Assembly (NCBI GenBank): GCA_964244895.1
Contig: CAXTKV010000061.1
Coordinates: forward strand, 10,968 to 24,288
From: an uncultured Deinococcales bacterium
GTDB lineage: Bacteria; Deinococcota; Deinococci; Deinococcales; JAAFIG01
Length of the DNA: 13,321 nucleotides
Reading direction: 5' to 3'
In this document: positions 1,726 to 11,893 of the stretch, piece after piece
Layout of the letters: each line of letters opens with the position of its first letter
Position numbering within the stretch: position 1 is the first letter of the stretch
Position numbers and translations under genes: made by a program
The notes under the pieces: generated by a model
Databases searched by the model: none
The model's input: only the letters and a program-made list of their open reading frames with translations
What the model was told of the DNA's origin: nothing

Positions 1726-1981
1726 ACTCGTTCCTCCTGGAGTGCGATAGATCGTCCGTCTGATTGATCCGGGTGTGTCCGTCGGGATTCCCAGCTGGGC
1801 TCAGGCTACCAGAAGCCGAAAATTCAACCGTCATGCCGAGGTCAGAGAACGCTGTCGAACACGGACTCGAGTTGCATCGAGGACGGGACAGCACTTAGTC
1901 TGGGTTTTACTCAACCGTGCAAGAACCGGAGGGGACTCGTCGAGGGGACTTTTGGGCGAGGATCGAACCAGGGGAGGTTCC

Positions 1982-4477
1982 ATGGCATTCGAATGGTGGT
2001 GCGGGTTGCTGCTCGGTTTGTTGTTCGGCTGGTTATCGCACGCACTCTTAGACTGGTTTCTGGGTTTGCGCGGCGCGCACAACAGGGCGCAGTTGGCCGT
2101 GTCAGACCTCGAATTTGATCGGGATAAGATTCGCGCCGAATACGACGGTATGGAGCGCCAGGTCAAGGAAGCGCACGGGCTGCGCGAAAAGCTCGAACGA
2201 GACGGTCTAGAGATGCGCTCGCGGCTTCAGGAATTCGATGCCAACGCCTCGGAACTCGCCAGCCTGAGGTTGACCCTCAAGGATTTCGACGCGCTGACGG
2301 CTCGCGTTCCGGTGATCCAGGCCGATCTCTCGCATTTCAAATTGAGGGCTGAAGAACTCGAGGGCCAACTCGGGACGCGCGATCGGGAACTCGAGGATCT
2401 GAAGGCGCGCACCGCGGAGATTGAGCCGCTCAGGACGCGCACCGCTGCTCTCGACGAGGAACTGCGCCGGGCGCGCGAGGATGCTGAGGCTGAACGACTC
2501 AGGCTCGAGCAGCTTCAGACGCACCACGCGGCGGAACTCGATGCCGGACGCGGGGCGCTCGCCGAGGCTCAAAACGCCCAGGGGCGGTTGCCGGAACTCG
2601 AGATGCTGGTCGCCTCGATGCAGGCCAAGCTGGGCGAATCCTCGGGATTGGCGGCGGAACTCCGCGCCCGAGAGACGGAACTCGAGGTGCGAGACTCGGA
2701 GCTGAAGGCGCTGCGAACCCGCGTCGCCGACCTGGAATTGGGTCGGGCCAAGCCTGGGAATTTCGAGCCGCAACTGATTGAACTGCACGCCCGGCTCGAG
2801 CGCGTCGAGGCCGACCGCGCCCGCATCCAGAGCGAGCTTTCCGCGCGCGAGAACGACCTTTTCGATCTGGCTGGTCAGCTCAACCTGGCGCAGGGTTTTC
2901 AGGCGCGCGCCCTGAAACTCCAAGAAGAGCTGGGCGCCCGCGACCGACAGCTCAGGGCTTTCGAGGCCGCGCCGAAAGACGACACCGCCGCGCGGCGCGT
3001 CTCGGAGCTCGAGGGGGAACTTTCAAAGGCCCGAGCCGGGCTGGTGGGCGCGCAGGCGAGTGCGGCGCGACTGGCCTTGCTGGAGTCCCAGCACGCGAAC
3101 CTGAGCGCCAGGCTCGCAGAACTCTCGTCCGTTCAGGAGCACGCCGTACAACTCGAGCACGAGATTCGCAGCCTGAAGGCGAGCGCACTCGATCACGAAT
3201 CGGAACGCACCGCGCGAGAACAGGAGCGCGCCGGCCACGGCCTGCGCCTTCAGGGGCTCGAGGCTCAACTCTCAAACTCGAGCGCCGAGATCGCGCGTCT
3301 GAAAACCGAACTCGAGGAGGCGCGCCGCACGCCCGACGACCTAACCAGGGTGGACGGTATCGGCGCGGTCTTCGCTAAACGCTTGAACGCGGCGGGCATC
3401 GTGCGTTTCGGGCAACTGGCTCAGCTGCCTTCGGAGCGCTTGCGCGAGATCATCAAGCCCGAAGATTGGCAAAAAATCGAGTTTGAACACTGGACCGATG
3501 ACGCCGCCTTGCTGGCGCGCGGCGAGACGCCGCTCAAACGCGCCCGCGCGCTCGAGCGGCTGGTGCGAATCACCGGAATCGGGGAGGTCTACGAAAAACG
3601 CCTGCACGACGCTGGAATCACCACCCACGCGGAACTGGCCGCCACCGGAGTCGAGCGCCTGATGGAGATCGCGGGAGCGGAGAACCGCACCGAGGTCGAA
3701 CTCTGGATCACCGAGGCCGGAGCCTACGCGCAGGGCAAACGCCCGAACCGCGAGCGCGAGAAGGTCGTGCGCGGCAGGCTCTCGGATGCCGAAGGCGAAC
3801 TCGATCGCTTGAGGGGCGAGTTGCGACGCGCGGAATCTCAGCGCCGCGACCGCTTCGAGGTCATGACCCAAATTGGTGACGCCAAACAGCGCCGCCTGTA
3901 CGGCGCGGGCATCTACCTCTTCGAGGATCTGGCGCGCACGCCCGAAGGCCGGTTGCGCGAGATCTTCGAGGCCGCCGACCTGGATTACGGCCTGATCAGC
4001 CGCGAGGCCGCCGAGTACGCTCGCGGCGAGATCATCGTCGTCAAGGGTCGCCGCGCCGATCGGTTTGAGCGTCTGACGGGTGTTTCCGAAAGCGATGCCA
4101 GGGCGCTCTACGCCGCGAACATCTACAGTTTCGAGGAACTCGCGCAACGCTCGAGCGAACAACTCGAAGAAATCATCGGCAGGGACGGCATGGGCGGCTG
4201 CGTCACCGAAGCCGGGTTGTTCGCTACGGGTCAGGCTCAGATCGAGTTTATCGATGCGGGCAAGCGCCACCGCGATCAACTCTGGCGGATCGACGGCATC
4301 GGTGAGGTCTTCGAGGGCCGCCTGAACCGCGCCGAGATCTTCAGCTTCGCCGAACTGGCCGCCGCGAGCCCCGAGCGCTTGCGCGAGATCATCAATCCGC
4401 AACCCTGGGAACGCATCGAACCCGTCGCCTGGATCGCGCAGGCTCGCGCACTGGGCGCAGAGGAGAGGGAATCATGA
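1982..4477 (+). CDS. Membrane-anchored long coiled-coil protein with five C-terminal HhH-like (COG3743/DUF4332-type) repeats, 831 aa
   Basis: GGAGG RBS just before ATG 1982 (preferred to the ORF-track start at 1775). N-terminal hydrophobic helix WWCGLLLGLLFGWLSHALLDWFLGL, about 420 aa of E/L/R/A-rich heptads, then repeats of type DDLTRVDGIGAVFAKRLNAAGIVRFGQLA at 3335, 3554, 3848, 4058 and 4274. Confidence 0.85.
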   Translation: MAFEWWCGLLLGLLFGWLSHALLDWFLGLRGAHNRAQLAVSDLEFDRDKIRAEYDGMERQVKEAHGLREKLERDGLEMRSRLQEFDANASELASLRLTLKDFDALTARVPVIQADLSHFKLRAEELEGQLGTRDRELEDLKARTAEIEPLRTRTAALDEELRRAREDAEAERLRLEQLQTHHAAELDAGRGALAEAQNAQGRLPELEMLVASMQAKLGESSGLAAELRARETELEVRDSELKALRTRVADLELGRAKPGNFEPQLIELHARLERVEADRARIQSELSARENDLFDLAGQLNLAQGFQARALKLQEELGARDRQLRAFEAAPKDDTAARRVSELEGELSKARAGLVGAQASAARLALLESQHANLSARLAELSSVQEHAVQLEHEIRSLKASALDHESERTAREQERAGHGLRLQGLEAQLSNSSAEIARLKTELEEARRTPDDLTRVDGIGAVFAKRLNAAGIVRFGQLAQLPSERLREIIKPEDWQKIEFEHWTDDAALLARGETPLKRARALERLVRITGIGEVYEKRLHDAGITTHAELAATGVERLMEIAGAENRTEVELWITEAGAYAQGKRPNREREKVVRGRLSDAEGELDRLRGELRRAESQRRDRFEVMTQIGDAKQRRLYGAGIYLFEDLARTPEGRLREIFEAADLDYGLISREAAEYARGEIIVVKGRRADRFERLTGVSESDARALYAANIYSFEELAQRSSEQLEEIIGRDGMGGCVTEAGLFATGQAQIEFIDAGKRHRDQLWRIDGIGEVFEGRLNRAEIFSFAELAAASPERLREIINPQPWERIEPVAWIAQARALGAEERES

Positions 4478-5433
4478 CGCAGACCCGCAACGACCCGTGG
4501 ACCGCCTGGAACCTCTGGACGGCGCTGATCGCGCTCGCGTTTTTCCTGCTGTGGCTGATCGTCTGCCCGCTGCGCCTCTTCGGCGGGATGGCCGCCATGA
4601 CCGCGCCCAGCATCGATCCGCTCGCCTCGAGCGAGATCACCGCTTCGCCGCTCAAACTGAGCGGCACGGCTGCGCCCAACTCGAGCCTGCAACTCCGGCT
4701 CGGGGATAAAACCTTCGGCCCGGTCGCCGTCGGTGCGGACGGCACCTGGAACGCCAGCGCCGACCTGAAGGGGCTGGCGGGTGACCTCAGGCTGGTCGCG
4801 GATTCGCTGGCCGCAGACGGCTCGGTCGCGGCCAGTTCGGCCCCGGTGGCGCTCAAACTCAACCTCGCGAGCCCCTCTGGTGCGAGCTTCACCGCGCCCG
4901 CCGCCGACGAACCCCTGGATGCGCAGTCTTACATCCTCGAGGGCATCGGAACGCCCGGCCAGAAGCTCGAGATCTGGCAGAGCGCACCCGGTAAACCCAT
5001 CGCGCAGTACGCGACCGCGACCGTCGGGGCGGACGGTCAATGGAGTTCCGTCGTCGACGGCGCAAAACCCGGCACGAAGCCCGGCATCTACACCTACGAA
5101 CTGCGCCAGCCCGGCAAACCCGACGCGCTCGCCAGCCGCACGCTGACCGTCAAGGCGGGTTTGACCGGCGCCAGCAACGCCAAATGTCCATGCAAACTGC
5201 GAATCTTCACCAACACCAAGCAGAACATTCCGACCTCGAGCATCACGCTCTTCAAGGACGGTCAGAAACTCGATTCCGGCACGTCGGACAAGCTCTTTGG
5301 CGATCTCGGGCAGGGCAGCTACACCTACTCGGTTTCCGCGCCGAACTTCAAGACCTACACCTCGCCCGCAGGTAAGGTCAGCTTGCCGCGCAACAAGAGC
5401 TTCGAGGTCTACCTCGAGCCGATCAAGCGCTGA
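4474..5433 (+). CDS. Membrane-anchored extracytoplasmic protein with two bacterial Ig-like (Big) repeats and a C-terminal beta-sandwich (PEGA/carboxypeptidase-regulatory-like), 319 aa
   Basis: ATGA overlap with the upstream stop and a GAGGAG RBS. TM segment WTALIALAFFLLWLIVCPL. Repeats LSGTAAPNSSLQL...VAVGADGTWNA and LEGIGTPGQKLEI...ATVGADGQWSS, a CPC motif, and C-terminal FGDLGQGSYTYSVSAPNFKTY. Confidence 0.8.
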   Translation: MTQTRNDPWTAWNLWTALIALAFFLLWLIVCPLRLFGGMAAMTAPSIDPLASSEITASPLKLSGTAAPNSSLQLRLGDKTFGPVAVGADGTWNASADLKGLAGDLRLVADSLAADGSVAASSAPVALKLNLASPSGASFTAPAADEPLDAQSYILEGIGTPGQKLEIWQSAPGKPIAQYATATVGADGQWSSVVDGAKPGTKPGIYTYELRQPGKPDALASRTLTVKAGLTGASNAKCPCKLRIFTNTKQNIPTSSITLFKDGQKLDSGTSDKLFGDLGQGSYTYSVSAPNFKTYTSPAGKVSLPRNKSFEVYLEPIKR

Positions 5434-8458: not shown

Positions 8459-8926
8459 CTACCCGCCGGATGCGTCGTCGTCGCGGGCCTTGACGGCGAT
8501 CATCGCGACCAGCGCCAGCACCTCGAGCGGCGCGTCACCGAACAGGCTGACCTCCTCGGCGTTGGTTCGCCCTCCGACGCGACCGTGCACCCAGCCGCCC
8601 TTGCGCTCGAGCCGCACGTCCTTGCCGAAAATTCTGCCGCCGTACCGCCCGGTGGCGGTGGTGTCGCTCAGGATCAGGTCGAGGTCGTGGCCGTTGTGGT
8701 CGCCACCCAGCCGCAACCGAATTCGGCTGGGCGATACGAGGCCGCGCAGGTCGAAACCCAATCGATCGCCCCCGACCCGACCGTGGGTGTTCGAGCCGAC
8801 CGTCACGAGCACCTCGTGCCCGAACGCGCGACCACCGAGCCGCCCGCTGAGTTCGGCGTCCAGCCACTCTAATTCGAGTTTGGTGCCGCCACCCAGCCCG
8901 TTGCCGACCGTTCCACGGATCTTCAT
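8459..8926 (-). CDS. Hypothetical Gly-rich protein with six ~22-aa GRhGG repeats and a C-terminal hydrophobic helix, 155 aa
   Basis: Repeats GTVGN, GRLGG, GRVGG, LRLGG, GRYGG, GRVGG at residues 5, 28, 49, 71, 93, 115, then PLEVLALVAMIAVKA. A -10-like GAGAAT lies 6 nt before the ATG. Confidence 0.8.
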   Translation of the reverse strand: MKIRGTVGNGLGGGTKLELEWLDAELSGRLGGRAFGHEVLVTVGSNTHGRVGGDRLGFDLRGLVSPSRIRLRLGGDHNGHDLDLILSDTTATGRYGGRIFGKDVRLERKGGWVHGRVGGRTNAEEVSLFGDAPLEVLALVAMIAVKARDDDASGG

Positions 8927-8982: not shown

Positions 8983-9099
8983 GCGGGCCACGGGAGCCGC
9001 GGGGCCAGAACAGACGCCCTTGATCGCGACCGTTTCGATCTCGTGTCTCGCGCAACGCATCAGCGCGGACTGAAATCCCTCGACCGATGCCCCATAAAG

Positions 9100-9117
9100 A
9101 CCGTCCTGTACGGTGTT
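9100..9117 (-). repeat. Degenerate solo arm of the dispersed repeat
   Basis: Minus strand AACACCGTACAGGACG is 14/16 to AACACCGTCCAGCACG; palindromic ACCGT-N5-ACGGT at 9100-9114. Confidence 0.5.
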
Positions 9118-9301
9118 CTCTGCGTCCTGCACTGAACGGTTCGCCGTTCGCGGGCTCGAGATCGGGCATGTCTAAATCCGCGCTCGCGCCGAAGGCCGCG
9201 CTCGCGAGATCATCGTCGCGGACGATCCCGAACCGATTCGTCCATCCACAAACGTCGTTCGCCACAGCGCCCCGGATGTGGGCGCCCTCAGATTTTCGCG
9301 T

Positions 9302-9307
9302 TACAAT
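9302..9307 (+). promoter_or_regulatory. -10 box TACAAT for smpB, probable leaderless promoter
   Basis: TACAAT followed by 7 nt and an in-frame GTG at 9315; no Shine-Dalgarno upstream. Confidence 0.55.
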
Positions 9308-9740
9308 GCCCAGCGTGTACGCCAACCGGCGCGCGGGATTCGAATACGAGCTGCTCGAACGCTTCGAGGCGGGCATCGCTTTGACTGGGACGGAGATCAA
9401 AAGCATCCGAACCGGCGGGGTGGACTTCCGCGATGCCTTCGCGCGCTTCCACGGTCAGGAACTCTACCTGGAGGGCCTCTACATTCCGCCCTACGACAAG
9501 GCGTCCTACAACAACCACGAACCGCGCCGTGATCGCAAGTTGCTGTTGCACAAGAGCGAATTGCGCGACCTGCGGATCAACATCACCCACAAGGGTTTGA
9601 CGGTCGTGCCGGTCAAGATGTACTTCAAGAACGGTCGCGCCAAACTCGAGGTCGCCGTGGCGCGCGGCAAGAAGCTGCACGATAAGCGCGAATCGGATCG
9701 CGCCCGCGAGGTCAAACGCGAAATGGAAGGCTACCGGTGA
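9306..9740 (+). CDS. smpB: SsrA-binding protein SmpB
   Basis: NRRAGFEYELLERFEAGIALTGTEIKSIR, NHEPRRDRKLLLHK, GLTVVP, ARGKKLHDKRE. Start is ATG 9306 or leaderless GTG 9315, not the ORF-track 9087. Confidence 0.97.
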   Translation: MPSVYANRRAGFEYELLERFEAGIALTGTEIKSIRTGGVDFRDAFARFHGQELYLEGLYIPPYDKASYNNHEPRRDRKLLLHKSELRDLRINITHKGLTVVPVKMYFKNGRAKLEVAVARGKKLHDKRESDRAREVKREMEGYR

Positions 9741-11248
9741 ACATCGCTCGAGCGGCGATGCTCGCGCTGGTGCTTTCGGTCGCGGCCCTGATCGCGGTGG
9801 CGTTCGCGCAGGCCGCCAGCAAGGACGTGCTGGTGCTCAATTCGACCCTCAAGGCGAGCTTCCCCGGCGGTTTCGGCGTGGGTTACGTCCCGGCGGACGA
9901 TCTGGCGCAGGCGCTCGGGCTCGAGGTGCAGGTCGGGCGCGACTGGATCAACCTGACGCTCGGCGGAACCGTTTTGCGCCTGAGCCTGGCGGATACGGCG
10001 CTGGAAGCCTCTCGTTACAACCGCGCCCTGAGCGTCAACGGCTCGCCGGGGAGCGGCCCGGCGGCGGGCTACTCGGGCGGCGAGATCGTCGTGCCGTTGC
10101 GGGCGGTCGTCGAGGCGTTCGGCGGCAGCATGCAGGACGCTGGATCTCAGATCAAGGTGGTCTTTTCGTCTGCGCAGCTCAAGGAAGTCTCGCAATCCAC
10201 GGGCGCAAACGCGGATCGCGCCGTGTTGGAGCTCTCGCACCAGGCGAGCTTCACGGCTCGGGTCGAGGGCGAAGACGCGGTCGTGACCGTACGCAACGCG
10301 CGCGGCGAACCGGTGCGTTACGCGGTCAATGGTACATATATCAAGGAAGTCGAGGTTCGCACCGTCGGCGACGATCTCGAGGCCAGAATCAGGTTGCCCA
10401 AAGATTCGGGTTTTCGCGCCTTCGCCCTGCCCGTCGCGCCGGGCGCGGACGCCGCCACCGCCAAAGGGCGCGTCGCGATCGATGTCGGTCCAGCCTACGA
10501 CCGCCCCGAGGTGGCGCTCGAGGCTCGGCCCGTGGTGGTCGTGCTGGACGCTGCCCACGGCGGTTCGGATCTGGGTGTGGTCGAAGGCAACCTGATCGAA
10601 AAAACCATCGCCTTGAGCATGGCTCGGCTGATCGGGCAGAACCTGTCGAATCGGGGCGTGACGGTGCGTTACACCCGGACGGACGATTCCGACCCGAGCC
10701 TCGTGGCGCGCCGCGAGCGCCTGATCGCCTCGGACGCCTTCGTCAGCCTCCACCTCTCTCGATTGCCCGGCGCCAGCGCTTCGGGTGTGGCGGTCTACTC
10801 GCTCGACAAGAACGCCCCCCTGGACGGTATTCTTCGCGCTGGACGGCAAGCCCTGGCCGACCCCGCCAGCGATCCTCGCCGCAAGCTGCTCGAGCATTTC
10901 CTTTCGCCCGCCGACGCCGGCGAAGCTCTGTCCGACGCAATTCTCGGGCGGGTACAGGCGCTCTCAGAGCCCAAAATTCCGATTCAGGCCCTGACCACCG
11001 CCAGCCAGGTGCTGCTCTCGCACGCGCCGAAATCGGCGGTCGTGATCGAACTCGGCTGGCTCTCGAGCGACGCCGACCGACAGCGCCTCTCGAGCCGCAA
11101 GGAACTCGAACGGATGGCGCAGGCCATCGCGGCGGGTTTGCTCGATCACCTCGCGCCTTCCCTGCCGCGCCGCGCCACCAATCCCGGCTCGAGTACGCCA
11201 GCTCCACCCTCGAGCGCGCAACCCGCGCCCGCCACGGGTAAGCCGTGA
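9737..11248 (+). CDS. N-acetylmuramoyl-L-alanine amidase (Amidase_3) with signal peptide, copper-amine-oxidase-N-like and AMIN-like domains, 503 aa
   Basis: GTGA overlap with smpB stop. Signal peptide, YVPADDLAQALG and VVPLRAVVEAFGG motifs, catalytic domain VVLDAAHGGSDLG, IEKTIAL, YTRTDD, FVSLH, AVVIELGWLSS. Confidence 0.88.
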   Translation: MNIARAAMLALVLSVAALIAVAFAQAASKDVLVLNSTLKASFPGGFGVGYVPADDLAQALGLEVQVGRDWINLTLGGTVLRLSLADTALEASRYNRALSVNGSPGSGPAAGYSGGEIVVPLRAVVEAFGGSMQDAGSQIKVVFSSAQLKEVSQSTGANADRAVLELSHQASFTARVEGEDAVVTVRNARGEPVRYAVNGTYIKEVEVRTVGDDLEARIRLPKDSGFRAFALPVAPGADAATAKGRVAIDVGPAYDRPEVALEARPVVVVLDAAHGGSDLGVVEGNLIEKTIALSMARLIGQNLSNRGVTVRYTRTDDSDPSLVARRERLIASDAFVSLHLSRLPGASASGVAVYSLDKNAPLDGILRAGRQALADPASDPRRKLLEHFLSPADAGEALSDAILGRVQALSEPKIPIQALTTASQVLLSHAPKSAVVIELGWLSSDADRQRLSSRKELERMAQAIAAGLLDHLAPSLPRRATNPGSSTPAPPSSAQPAPATGKP

Positions 11249-11841
11249 ATGGGGTTGCCGGCGTGATCCGACGCCTGATCTGGCTGGCCTCGACGCCGTT
11301 CAATGTGGTCGCGGTGATCGCCGTGGCGGGCTTGCTGCTGGTGCGGCTGGTGCAGGAGCGCCCCGTCTCGACGCCGATCGACCCTTCGATCCTCGAGTTT
11401 GAGCAGGGGCCGCGCAAGGCGGAAGTCCCGTTGCGCCTGTATTTCGCCAGCCCGGACGCCCAGAGTTTCGCCATCGAGACGCGCGGCGTGCCCGTCTCCG
11501 GGAGCGCGCTGGCGGATCGCGCCAGCGCGGCGGTCAACGCCTGGATCGCCGGGCCGACCTCGCAGGGGGCGCTGCCGTTGATCGCGGTGCAGAACCTGCC
11601 CGAACCGACGATCTTCGCCAAGGCCGGGACGGTGTACATCGATCTGCCAAAACGCTGGACGACCAATCAGCTCGGCACGGCGGGCGAATTTTTGATGATC
11701 TGCGGTCTGGCCAACACCGTGCTCGAACTGGACGGCGCGAAAGCGGTGCAGTACCTGCTGGACGGCAAACCGACCGAGACCATCGGCGGGCACGTCGAGA
11801 CGACCGAGCCCTTCAGCTTGAAAACCTGTCGGGGGAGCTGA
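11245..11841 (+). CDS. GerMN domain-containing membrane protein, 198 aa
   Basis: GTGA overlap with the amidase stop. N-terminal TM, LRLYFASPD, GTVYIDLP, EFLMICGLANTVLELDGAKAVQYLLDGKPTETIGGHV. Confidence 0.85.
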   Translation: MNGVAGVIRRLIWLASTPFNVVAVIAVAGLLLVRLVQERPVSTPIDPSILEFEQGPRKAEVPLRLYFASPDAQSFAIETRGVPVSGSALADRASAAVNAWIAGPTSQGALPLIAVQNLPEPTIFAKAGTVYIDLPKRWTTNQLGTAGEFLMICGLANTVLELDGAKAVQYLLDGKPTETIGGHVETTEPFSLKTCRGS

Positions 11842-11851
11842 TGCCCAGCAA

Positions 11852-11893
11852 CACCGTCCAGCACAGCGTTTTTGATCTGCGTCCCGGACGATG
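11852..11893. repeat. Copy of the 42-bp inverted-repeat element between GerMN and smc
   Basis: CACCGTCCAGCACAGC-gtttttgatc-TGCGTCCCGGACGATG; each arm 13/16 to the 5483 copy, 10-nt T-rich loop. Confidence 0.75.

Follow-up and report, generated by a model that had tools for sequence, protein, structure and literature searches.

Two overlapping genes in a 13,321-nucleotide stretch of an uncultured Deinococcales bacterium (assembly GCA_964244895.1, contig CAXTKV010000061.1, positions 10,968–24,288; hereafter the window) specify a real, tightly coupled, modular and apparently undescribed membrane pair. Gene 1 encodes a single transmembrane helix (TM1) followed by a coiled-coil stalk and five helix-hairpin-helix (HhH) repeats, and gene 2 a second helix (TM2) followed by two immunoglobulin (Ig)-like domains and a β-sandwich cap that opens with Cys-Pro-Cys (CPC). 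The conserved core of the system is the two TM helices only; the five-HhH, long-stalk form found here is an elaboration of one lineage. This anatomy and the ATGA overlap of the genes agree with an initial annotation made from the letters of the window, the coiled coil coming to about 414 amino acids (aa), and the suggestion that the system is undescribed is in keeping with the literature searched (few subscription journals covered), in which we found no account of the pair. The pair was not found in the best-sampled genera of the phylum, which may explain why it has been overlooked.

The two genes occur together

The metagenomic count is the cleaner test of this coupling, the sets from the window's own phylum and from Chloroflexota being partly circular and made up of kin. 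Scanning metagenomes with the TM1 pattern alone as the query retained 80 of 216 loci, 16 of which are truncated by contig ends, leaving 64 that could be evaluated. We scored as a partner any gene that starts between −30 and +100 nt from the end of gene 1 and encodes DxxK followed by a hydrophobic helix. Such a gene came next at 59 of the 64 loci, compared with 1 of the 136 other open reading frame (ORF) ends there and 3 of 4,828 in the window's genome. Among the five loci scored as lacking a partner, three (L191, L193 and L198) continue into an HhH-type ORF resembling a split gene 1; at another locus so scored, L264, the motif is visible at the contig end.

The coupling proposed in the initial annotation is seen equally within the phylum, where the partner lies directly 3′ at 38 of 38 loci, and in Chloroflexota, where it comes next at 7 of 9. 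The 38-locus count omits G192 and G235, whose weak TM1 matches fall below the 15-bit check, and G001, G009 and G014, where the upstream region is cut off or unexamined. The partner is broken at two of the 38 loci (G021 and one G004 copy); in G021 it has decayed and TM1 is without its E, D and W. HhH proteins that lack the TM1 motif have no partner gene after them.

A profile of the first 55 residues of gene 1 matched 29 of 251 own-phylum genomes (by group, 5/5 in family f1, 6/6 in genus g8, 10/22 in g13 and 3/4 in g22) and 8 of 301 Chloroflexota genomes, as well as 818 protein clusters at 50% identity (E ≤ 0.001). Gene 2-like sequence is present in all 18 other genomes of the family. A contig scan with the gene 2 protein returned one locus only. 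A short gene 1 relative used as the query found hypothetical-protein clusters of Chloroflexota and Bacteroidota in the ESM Atlas and nothing in a plasmid search.

Constant helices, interchangeable modules

TM1 follows the family motif GxxxGWxxEWxxDxxxWR, with E and D invariant in the canonical TM1 subset, and TM2 opens with [YF]DxxK and then a hydrophobic stretch; no Pfam or NCBIfam model names either segment above chance level. Everything attached to the helices varies. The stalk of gene 1 ranges from about 27 to about 870 aa across loci, genus g5 has two tandem TM1 proteins of 58–65 aa in place of gene 1, and in genus g37 gene 1 is a 418- or 897-aa coiled coil without HhH. Over the 38 own-phylum loci the number of HhH repeats is 0 in 14, 1 in 12, 2 in 9, 3 in 1 and 5 in 2; over the 64 metagenomic loci it is 1 in 51, 0 in 8, 2 in 2, 3 in 1 and 5 in 2, and at least five repeats occur in further homologues. 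Of 150 TM1 representatives, 60 show no HhH; many of these are fragments, and for that reason they were not scored as HhH-less. The initial annotation had put a long multivalent arm at the heart of the system, a view that does not survive the absence of HhH from 14 of the 38 own-phylum loci and its presence as a single copy at 51 of the 64 metagenomic ones.

On the partner side, the spacer consists of zero to several Ig domains or of a Pro/Thr linker, and the cap is exchanged between lineages. Classified by end motif, 27 full-length metagenomic partners carry 19 SH3b-like caps, 7 LysM-like caps and 1 other; Pfam SH3_3 matched all 12 of the SH3b-like caps tested, and LysM exceeded its cut-off in L124 and L233. 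As their cap, genera g8 and g22 have LysM, genus g13 a two-Cys sandwich, and family f1 and genus g37 the CPC domain. The LysM and SH3b cell-wall-binding ends of relatives support the earlier idea of a periplasmic Ig scaffold. The accompanying description as 'trans-envelope' fits less well than 'inner membrane to wall', an outer-membrane component not being indicated.

Gene copy number varies as well. Two tandem TM1-type genes stand ahead of the partner in genus g5 (L054–L056, L063–L065 and L067) and at metagenomic loci L218 and L250; of the two loci in genome G004, one encodes three HhH repeats and the other none; and Anaerolineales locus L048 holds two complete pairs in tandem.

Architecture of the window's pair

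Each protein has a single hydrophobic peak, reaching 1.66 in gene 1 (Kyte-Doolittle 19-mer; next best 0.84) and 2.49 in gene 2 (next best 0.99). Residues 35–448 of gene 1 have a 3.5-residue hydrophobic periodicity of 0.71, compared with 0.27 ± 0.06 (maximum 0.49) in 300 shuffles; six prolines break it. Fully extended, at 0.148 nm per residue, the stalk would span about 60 nm. Pfam HHH_5 matches gene 1 at 83.8 bits (cut-off 27), and the NCBIfam models for L21, S2, NuoE and the phasin PhaH match it through their tail regions (E 2e-11 to 2e-22), PhaH (NF045508) with its C-terminal part only (E 2e-11). We take this tail to be the one labelled COG3743; homologues carry the JGI name 'predicted flap endonuclease-1-like 5′ DNA nuclease'.

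The AlphaFold2 (AF2) model of gene 1 (pLDDT 82, pTM 0.35) has five separate helical units, with a long helix separating repeat 2 from repeat 3. That the repeats would model as HhH/SAM-like folds was anticipated initially, and both the AF2 units and the fold matches (NusA, SAM domains, Topo V) agree with it, so that gene 1 combines a sequence match to the COG3743/HHH_5-type tail profile with an HhH/SAM-like fold. Structures of NusA matched are 4mtn (Z 9.4) and 2jzb (Z 7.5), and the top Foldseek row for the repeats is Topo V (E 0.02); a sequence comparison of the HhH array with solved structures gave no match. The acidic-repeat (AR) domains of NusA, the tandem (HhH)2 units of Topo V and SAM domains resemble the gene 1 repeats in fold only. 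The gene 2 model (pLDDT 87) comprises the TM helix, two Ig sandwiches and, from the CPC at residues 238–240, a transthyretin/CnaB-like sandwich.

The genes overlap by ATGA at 4474–4477 and a Shine-Dalgarno-like motif precedes each, an arrangement from which we infer translational coupling. A longer gene 1 ORF from a GTG start at 1775 was ruled out, as close homologues start at the identical Met.

Table 1 Features of the pair in the window
Feature	Position	Strand	Remarks
Shine-Dalgarno-like GGAGG ahead of gene 1 ATG	1973..1977	+	sequence
Gene 1	1982..4477	+	831 aa: TM1, coiled coil, 5 HhH (COG3743/HHH_5-type)
TM1 helix, aa 7-28	2000..2065	+	E of the family motif is H in gene 1
Coiled-coil stalk, aa 35-448	2084..3325	+	net charge −18, six prolines
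HhH repeat 1, aa 451-513	3332..3520	+	net −2; own hidden Markov model (HMM), AF2
HhH repeat 2, aa 524-584	3551..3733	+	net −5; own HMM, AF2
Long helical spacer separating repeats 2 and 3, aa ~588-619	3743..3838	+	AF2 model
HhH repeat 3, aa 622-681	3845..4024	+	net −2; first Gly of GhG substituted
HhH repeat 4, aa 692-~748	4055..4225	+	degenerate hairpin; net −5 over HMM-matched part
HhH repeat 5, aa 764-826	4271..4459	+	net −2; own HMM, AF2
GAGGAG motif and ATGA stop/start overlap, gene 1/gene 2	4460..4477	+	sequence
Gene 2	4474..5433	+	319 aa: TM2, Ig, Ig, CPC/transthyretin-like cap
TM2 helix, aa 9-32	4498..4569	+	family motif [YF]DxxK at helix start; N..T in gene 2
Ig-like domain 1, aa ~43-132	4600..4869	+	missing from some orthologues
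Ig-like domain 2, aa ~137-230	4882..5163	+	model
CPC-led transthyretin/CnaB-like β-sandwich, aa 238-318	5185..5427	+	model and alignment

A candidate wall-to-nucleoid anchor

Our tentative preference, by analogy, is for a HubP/FimV-like anchor divided between two proteins, with optional heads that would tether DNA in the manner of PhaH. Both single-pass proteins would form one inner-membrane complex, a step that we consider quite probable, with TM1 (N-out, C-in) and TM2 (N-in, C-out) packed antiparallel so that the conserved E/D of TM1 would meet the D..K of TM2 at the cytoplasmic leaflet. The predicted orientation rests on the homologues and not on the window's own flanking charges, which are weak (net 0 at gene 1 residues 29–45 and at gene 2 residues 1–12). 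A complex prediction for TM1 (55 aa) and TM2 (48 aa) from 32-row alignments (score 0.02, mark 0.32) was used neither way, its controls not having folded. Gene 2 would span to the wall by its Ig or Pro/Thr spacers and, to judge from known LysM and SH3b domains, be held there by these caps; in the window's lineage the CPC sandwich would take their place, and we lean slightly towards this version being anchored to wall or envelope too. Gene 1 carries a stalk of lineage-specific length and, across the loci, zero to five HhH heads.

Where present, the heads would bind DNA without sequence preference, as extrapolated from PhaH, whose HhH domain binds DNA without sequence specificity and positions polyhydroxybutyrate (PHB) granules on the nucleoid according to the available part of a review (PMC13052382). 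The case for DNA or RNA as the ligand of these heads is evenly balanced. The five-head form of about 60 nm would hold the nucleoid at wall-fixed membrane sites and set its distance from them. We note that the likelihoods given for complex, anchoring and ligand are not mutually independent.

Several observations weigh against this reading. The f1 loci were fetched via gene 2 matches and kin are not independent, and none of the 92 g7 and 30 g9 genomes searched matched the TM1 profile, so that the pair is dispensable for many relatives. HhH-less loci make up 14 of the 38 in the phylum, two of them with stalks of 390 and 870 aa, and tethering of DNA is therefore not a universal function. The window's own pair has diverged at the charged positions (E to H in TM1, D..K to N..T in TM2), and the charges are lost in genus g13 as well. 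The CPC cap has no known ligand and is present on proteins outside the pair. Within the array, every one of the five repeats has a net negative charge (−2 to −5), position two after GhG in TM1-linked repeats is Val in 48 and Lys in 4 of the 74 scored, and NusA gives the best HhH fold match (Z 9.4, rmsd 2.2 over 64 aligned positions); POLQ, AF1548, RAD51 paralogue N-domains and SAM domains come next, all at middling Z.

The net acidity, and the place of NusA and SAM domains among the top fold matches, speak for another use of the same membrane complex and wall anchor, in which the acidic HhH/SAM-like heads would bind proteins or each other and act as a landmark hub that, at sites fixed to the wall, captures further clients or HhH-tailed complexes (ribosomes via L4/L21, Complex I, glycogen enzymes). 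Protein binding is a property of NusA AR domains, with which the titles of Protein Data Bank (PDB) entries 2jzb and 1u9l are consistent. Many complexes that are unrelated to one another also bear the HhH tail, among them L4 in other genera of the family and two other proteins of the window's genome, and the cytoplasmic part of HubP is described in the available part of PMC12918733 as an acidic, variable client-binding region. However, PhaH, the sole tested member of the tail family, is the one reported to bind DNA, and the linkers between the gene 1 repeats are basic, giving a total of −10 for the region versus −16 for the repeats alone. The GhG hairpin is retained in most repeats, and net acidity is not decisive against DNA binding because HhH motifs touch the backbone via main-chain atoms; nor is acidity peculiar to gene 1, the HhH tails on other proteins having net charges of −7 to +2. 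Such a hub is a serious competitor of the DNA tether, though in our estimate somewhat unlikely.

The 14 HhH-less loci are also what a second alternative draws on, namely that the function resides entirely in the TM pair and stalk, as an envelope accessory like LapA or ZapG or a division or shape scaffold, with the heads a lineage-specific ornament. Weak matches to Pfam LapA_dom (PF06305, cut-off 28 bits) in 16 of 32 TM1 segments (best E 9.5e-6), and to ZapG in 2, point the same way; the LapA model gives no match at gene 1, however, and the weak matches may reflect just a common GxxxG-plus-coil build. At least one HhH lies in the same ORF at 56 of the 64 metagenomic loci, and the five repeats of gene 1 are about 50–93% identical across close homologues, neither of which suits an ornament, and we regard this alternative as unlikely.

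The conserved charges, E and D invariant in the canonical TM1 subset and Y-D..K in TM2, raise a third possibility in which these residues would make a path for ions like those of MotAB or GldLM, with the gene 2 product, fixed to the wall, serving as the stator and gene 1 as the driven element. A single-pass partner with Ig domains and a wall-binding cap would suit a stator, and tandem TM1 genes at some loci fit as well. Yet these charges are missing from the window's pair and from genus g13, and one helix per subunit would not suffice without large oligomers, gene 1 having one hydrophobic helix. Profiles of MotA/B, ExbB/D and GldL/M are not among the Pfam matches of 32 TM1 and 32 TM2 segments, whose shortness limits sensitivity. 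We consider an ion motor highly improbable.

DNA binding by the five-head arm of the favoured anchor would make the pair a nucleoid tether dedicated to that role and anchored to the wall; protein binding would make the tail a tag for interactions, and all HhH-tail fusions now read on the model of PhaH would have to be reinterpreted. A wider proposal, which we hold to be doubtful, is that the pair is a bacterial counterpart of LINC-type bridges, a two-protein wall–membrane–nucleoid tether with interchangeable modules, a stalk of 4–130 nm if extended and zero to five DNA-gripping heads tuned per lineage, and that ribosomes, respiratory complexes, gas vesicles and storage granules carry the HhH tail as a general 'nucleoid address tag'.

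Relation to known systems

HubP/FimV combines a periplasmic LysM and Ig-like part, a TM helix and a cytoplasmic region that is large, acidic and variable in length, and in the pair's relatives the same elements are split over two proteins. Polar positioning of Pseudomonas putida FimV requires LysM and the Ig-like domain, according to the available part of PMC12918733. Unlike HubP/FimV, the pair consists of two polypeptides with a conserved TM–TM signature, a coiled-coil stalk and HhH heads in place of the FimV TPR, and SH3b or CPC caps serve in its family as alternatives to LysM. In Pfam and NCBIfam scans the pair gave no match to a FimV/HubP profile, and LysM and TPR are absent from gene 1 and gene 2, LysM appearing only in gene 2 relatives.

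The Caulobacter phasin PhaH (NF045508), L21, S2 and NuoE share with gene 1 the same C-terminal HhH tail family. PhaH differs in having one tail that ties a PHB granule to DNA, whereas the gene 1 family bears zero to five tails on a membrane stalk. Gene 1 as a phasin PhaH was rejected, the whole protein reaching 44.3 bits against a cut-off of 250 with a tail-only match.

The ArfA-ArfB-ArfC (ompATb, rv0899-rv0901) and rhizobial operons are like the pair in that a wall-binding single-pass protein adjoins a GxxxG-type TM protein, sometimes with COG3743 HhH tails; unlike the pair they contain BON/OmpA, and the gene order is reversed. The available part of PMC12183614 assigns the ArfA/ArfB/ArfC operon a role in ammonia release and acid adaptation. 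The initial annotation had pointed to TM and HhH proteins beside ArfA-like BON/OmpA proteins, and such an arrangement exists, on a Rhizobium lusitanum plasmid where the gene after the one for TM-BON-OmpA encodes a multi-TM protein that bears two HhH tails (the Methylobacterium equivalent is without the tail). The pair itself is no member of such an operon, for gene 2 has no match to BON, OmpA or the ArfA model NF051434 in scans that detect them in the Rhizobium gene; elsewhere in the window's genome NF051434 gives weak matches only. With hhalign, TM1 and the rhizobial TM reach a probability of 2.9% and TM2 and the ArfA-like TM one of 0.5%, values from helices too short to settle remote kinship. 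The ArfB model NF051435 matches 1 of 32 TM1 segments (E 0.049), again short helices, and not gene 1. The pair may nonetheless work in the manner of an ArfA-type operon architecture.

HhH tails on other proteins

The HhH tail is appended to L4, L21, NuoC, NuoE, ATP synthase gamma and a jacalin protein, and further to a GvpC-like gene after gvpA, a GH57 branching enzyme and a GH13 protein. In the window's genome it occurs on the GH13 protein (G000:C34:17045-21559; 1,500 aa with an Ala/Lys/Pro-rich linker) and on the gene preceding a nuoJ-like ORF. In other genera of family f1, L4 has a long C-terminal extension that ends in the tail (L094:1483-2529, L109:1465-2574 and L096), a statement that covers those genera, L4 being missing from the assembly of the window's genome. 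Further tails lie on ATP synthase gamma (L176:1038-2306), on NuoC in several copies (L031:1501-3114) and on the GH57 branching enzyme (L133:1013-2971).

In Chloroflexota gas-vesicle clusters (L172:3746-5470, L173:3755-5056 and L174:3692-4969), a GvpC-like repeat gene right after gvpA ends in the tail, and its product is possibly a PhaH-like organelle tether. A ligand of the HhH tail is reported for PhaH only, and the gene 1 array lends itself to a clean test of the COG3743/HhH tail.

The CPC cap

Across 17 aligned copies of the CPC domain, C, P, C, R, L, P and N are invariant. Its profile matched 41 of 301 own-phylum genomes, mainly in families f1 and f5; in f5 the domain caps multi-TM proteins via Pro-rich linkers. 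Against PDB the profile gave weak matches at best (top E 0.013), and ESM Atlas matches for the C-terminal module of gene 2 were all <0.9. The replacement of LysM or SH3b by CPC at the same position suggests an envelope-binding role.

Within the window's genome the Ig and CPC module also ends a membrane pyrophosphatase, a SurA/PrsA-like peptidyl-prolyl isomerase (PPIase) and a small membrane protein. The membrane H+/Na+-pyrophosphatase (G000:C103:13554-16190, L068) is extended at its C-terminus by about 190 aa of Ig and CPC, the module also found in gene 2, and the fusion recurs in G005, G003, G007, G009, G011, G013 and G015; we know of no such fusion of a membrane pyrophosphatase to Ig and a CPC sandwich. 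The SurA/PrsA-like PPIase (G000:C69:8398-10797, L069) ends in the module in this genome; in other f1 genera (L286) it ends instead in a version of the sandwich that has no CPC. Genus g7 is without the pair, yet its DUF937 and Ig proteins (L084:3866-6241, L080 and L082) end in the two-Cys sandwich that caps the gene 2 partner in genus g13.

Genomic context

On the opposite strand, an ABC sugar-binding gene lies upstream of the pair, and ABC permease-like genes lie downstream of it. Between 1650 and 5750 we found no excess of sigma-70-like promoters or terminators, and no RNA holder is listed for the region. Farther along the window, a 155-aa ORF on the minus strand (8459-8926) has Gly/Arg-rich repeats and is without a Pfam match. 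At 9737-11841 an Amidase_3 gene overlaps a Germane (GerMN) gene, coming after an smpB-like gene (9087-9740) and ahead of an SMC-like ORF that begins at 11891, which looks like an ordinary housekeeping context.

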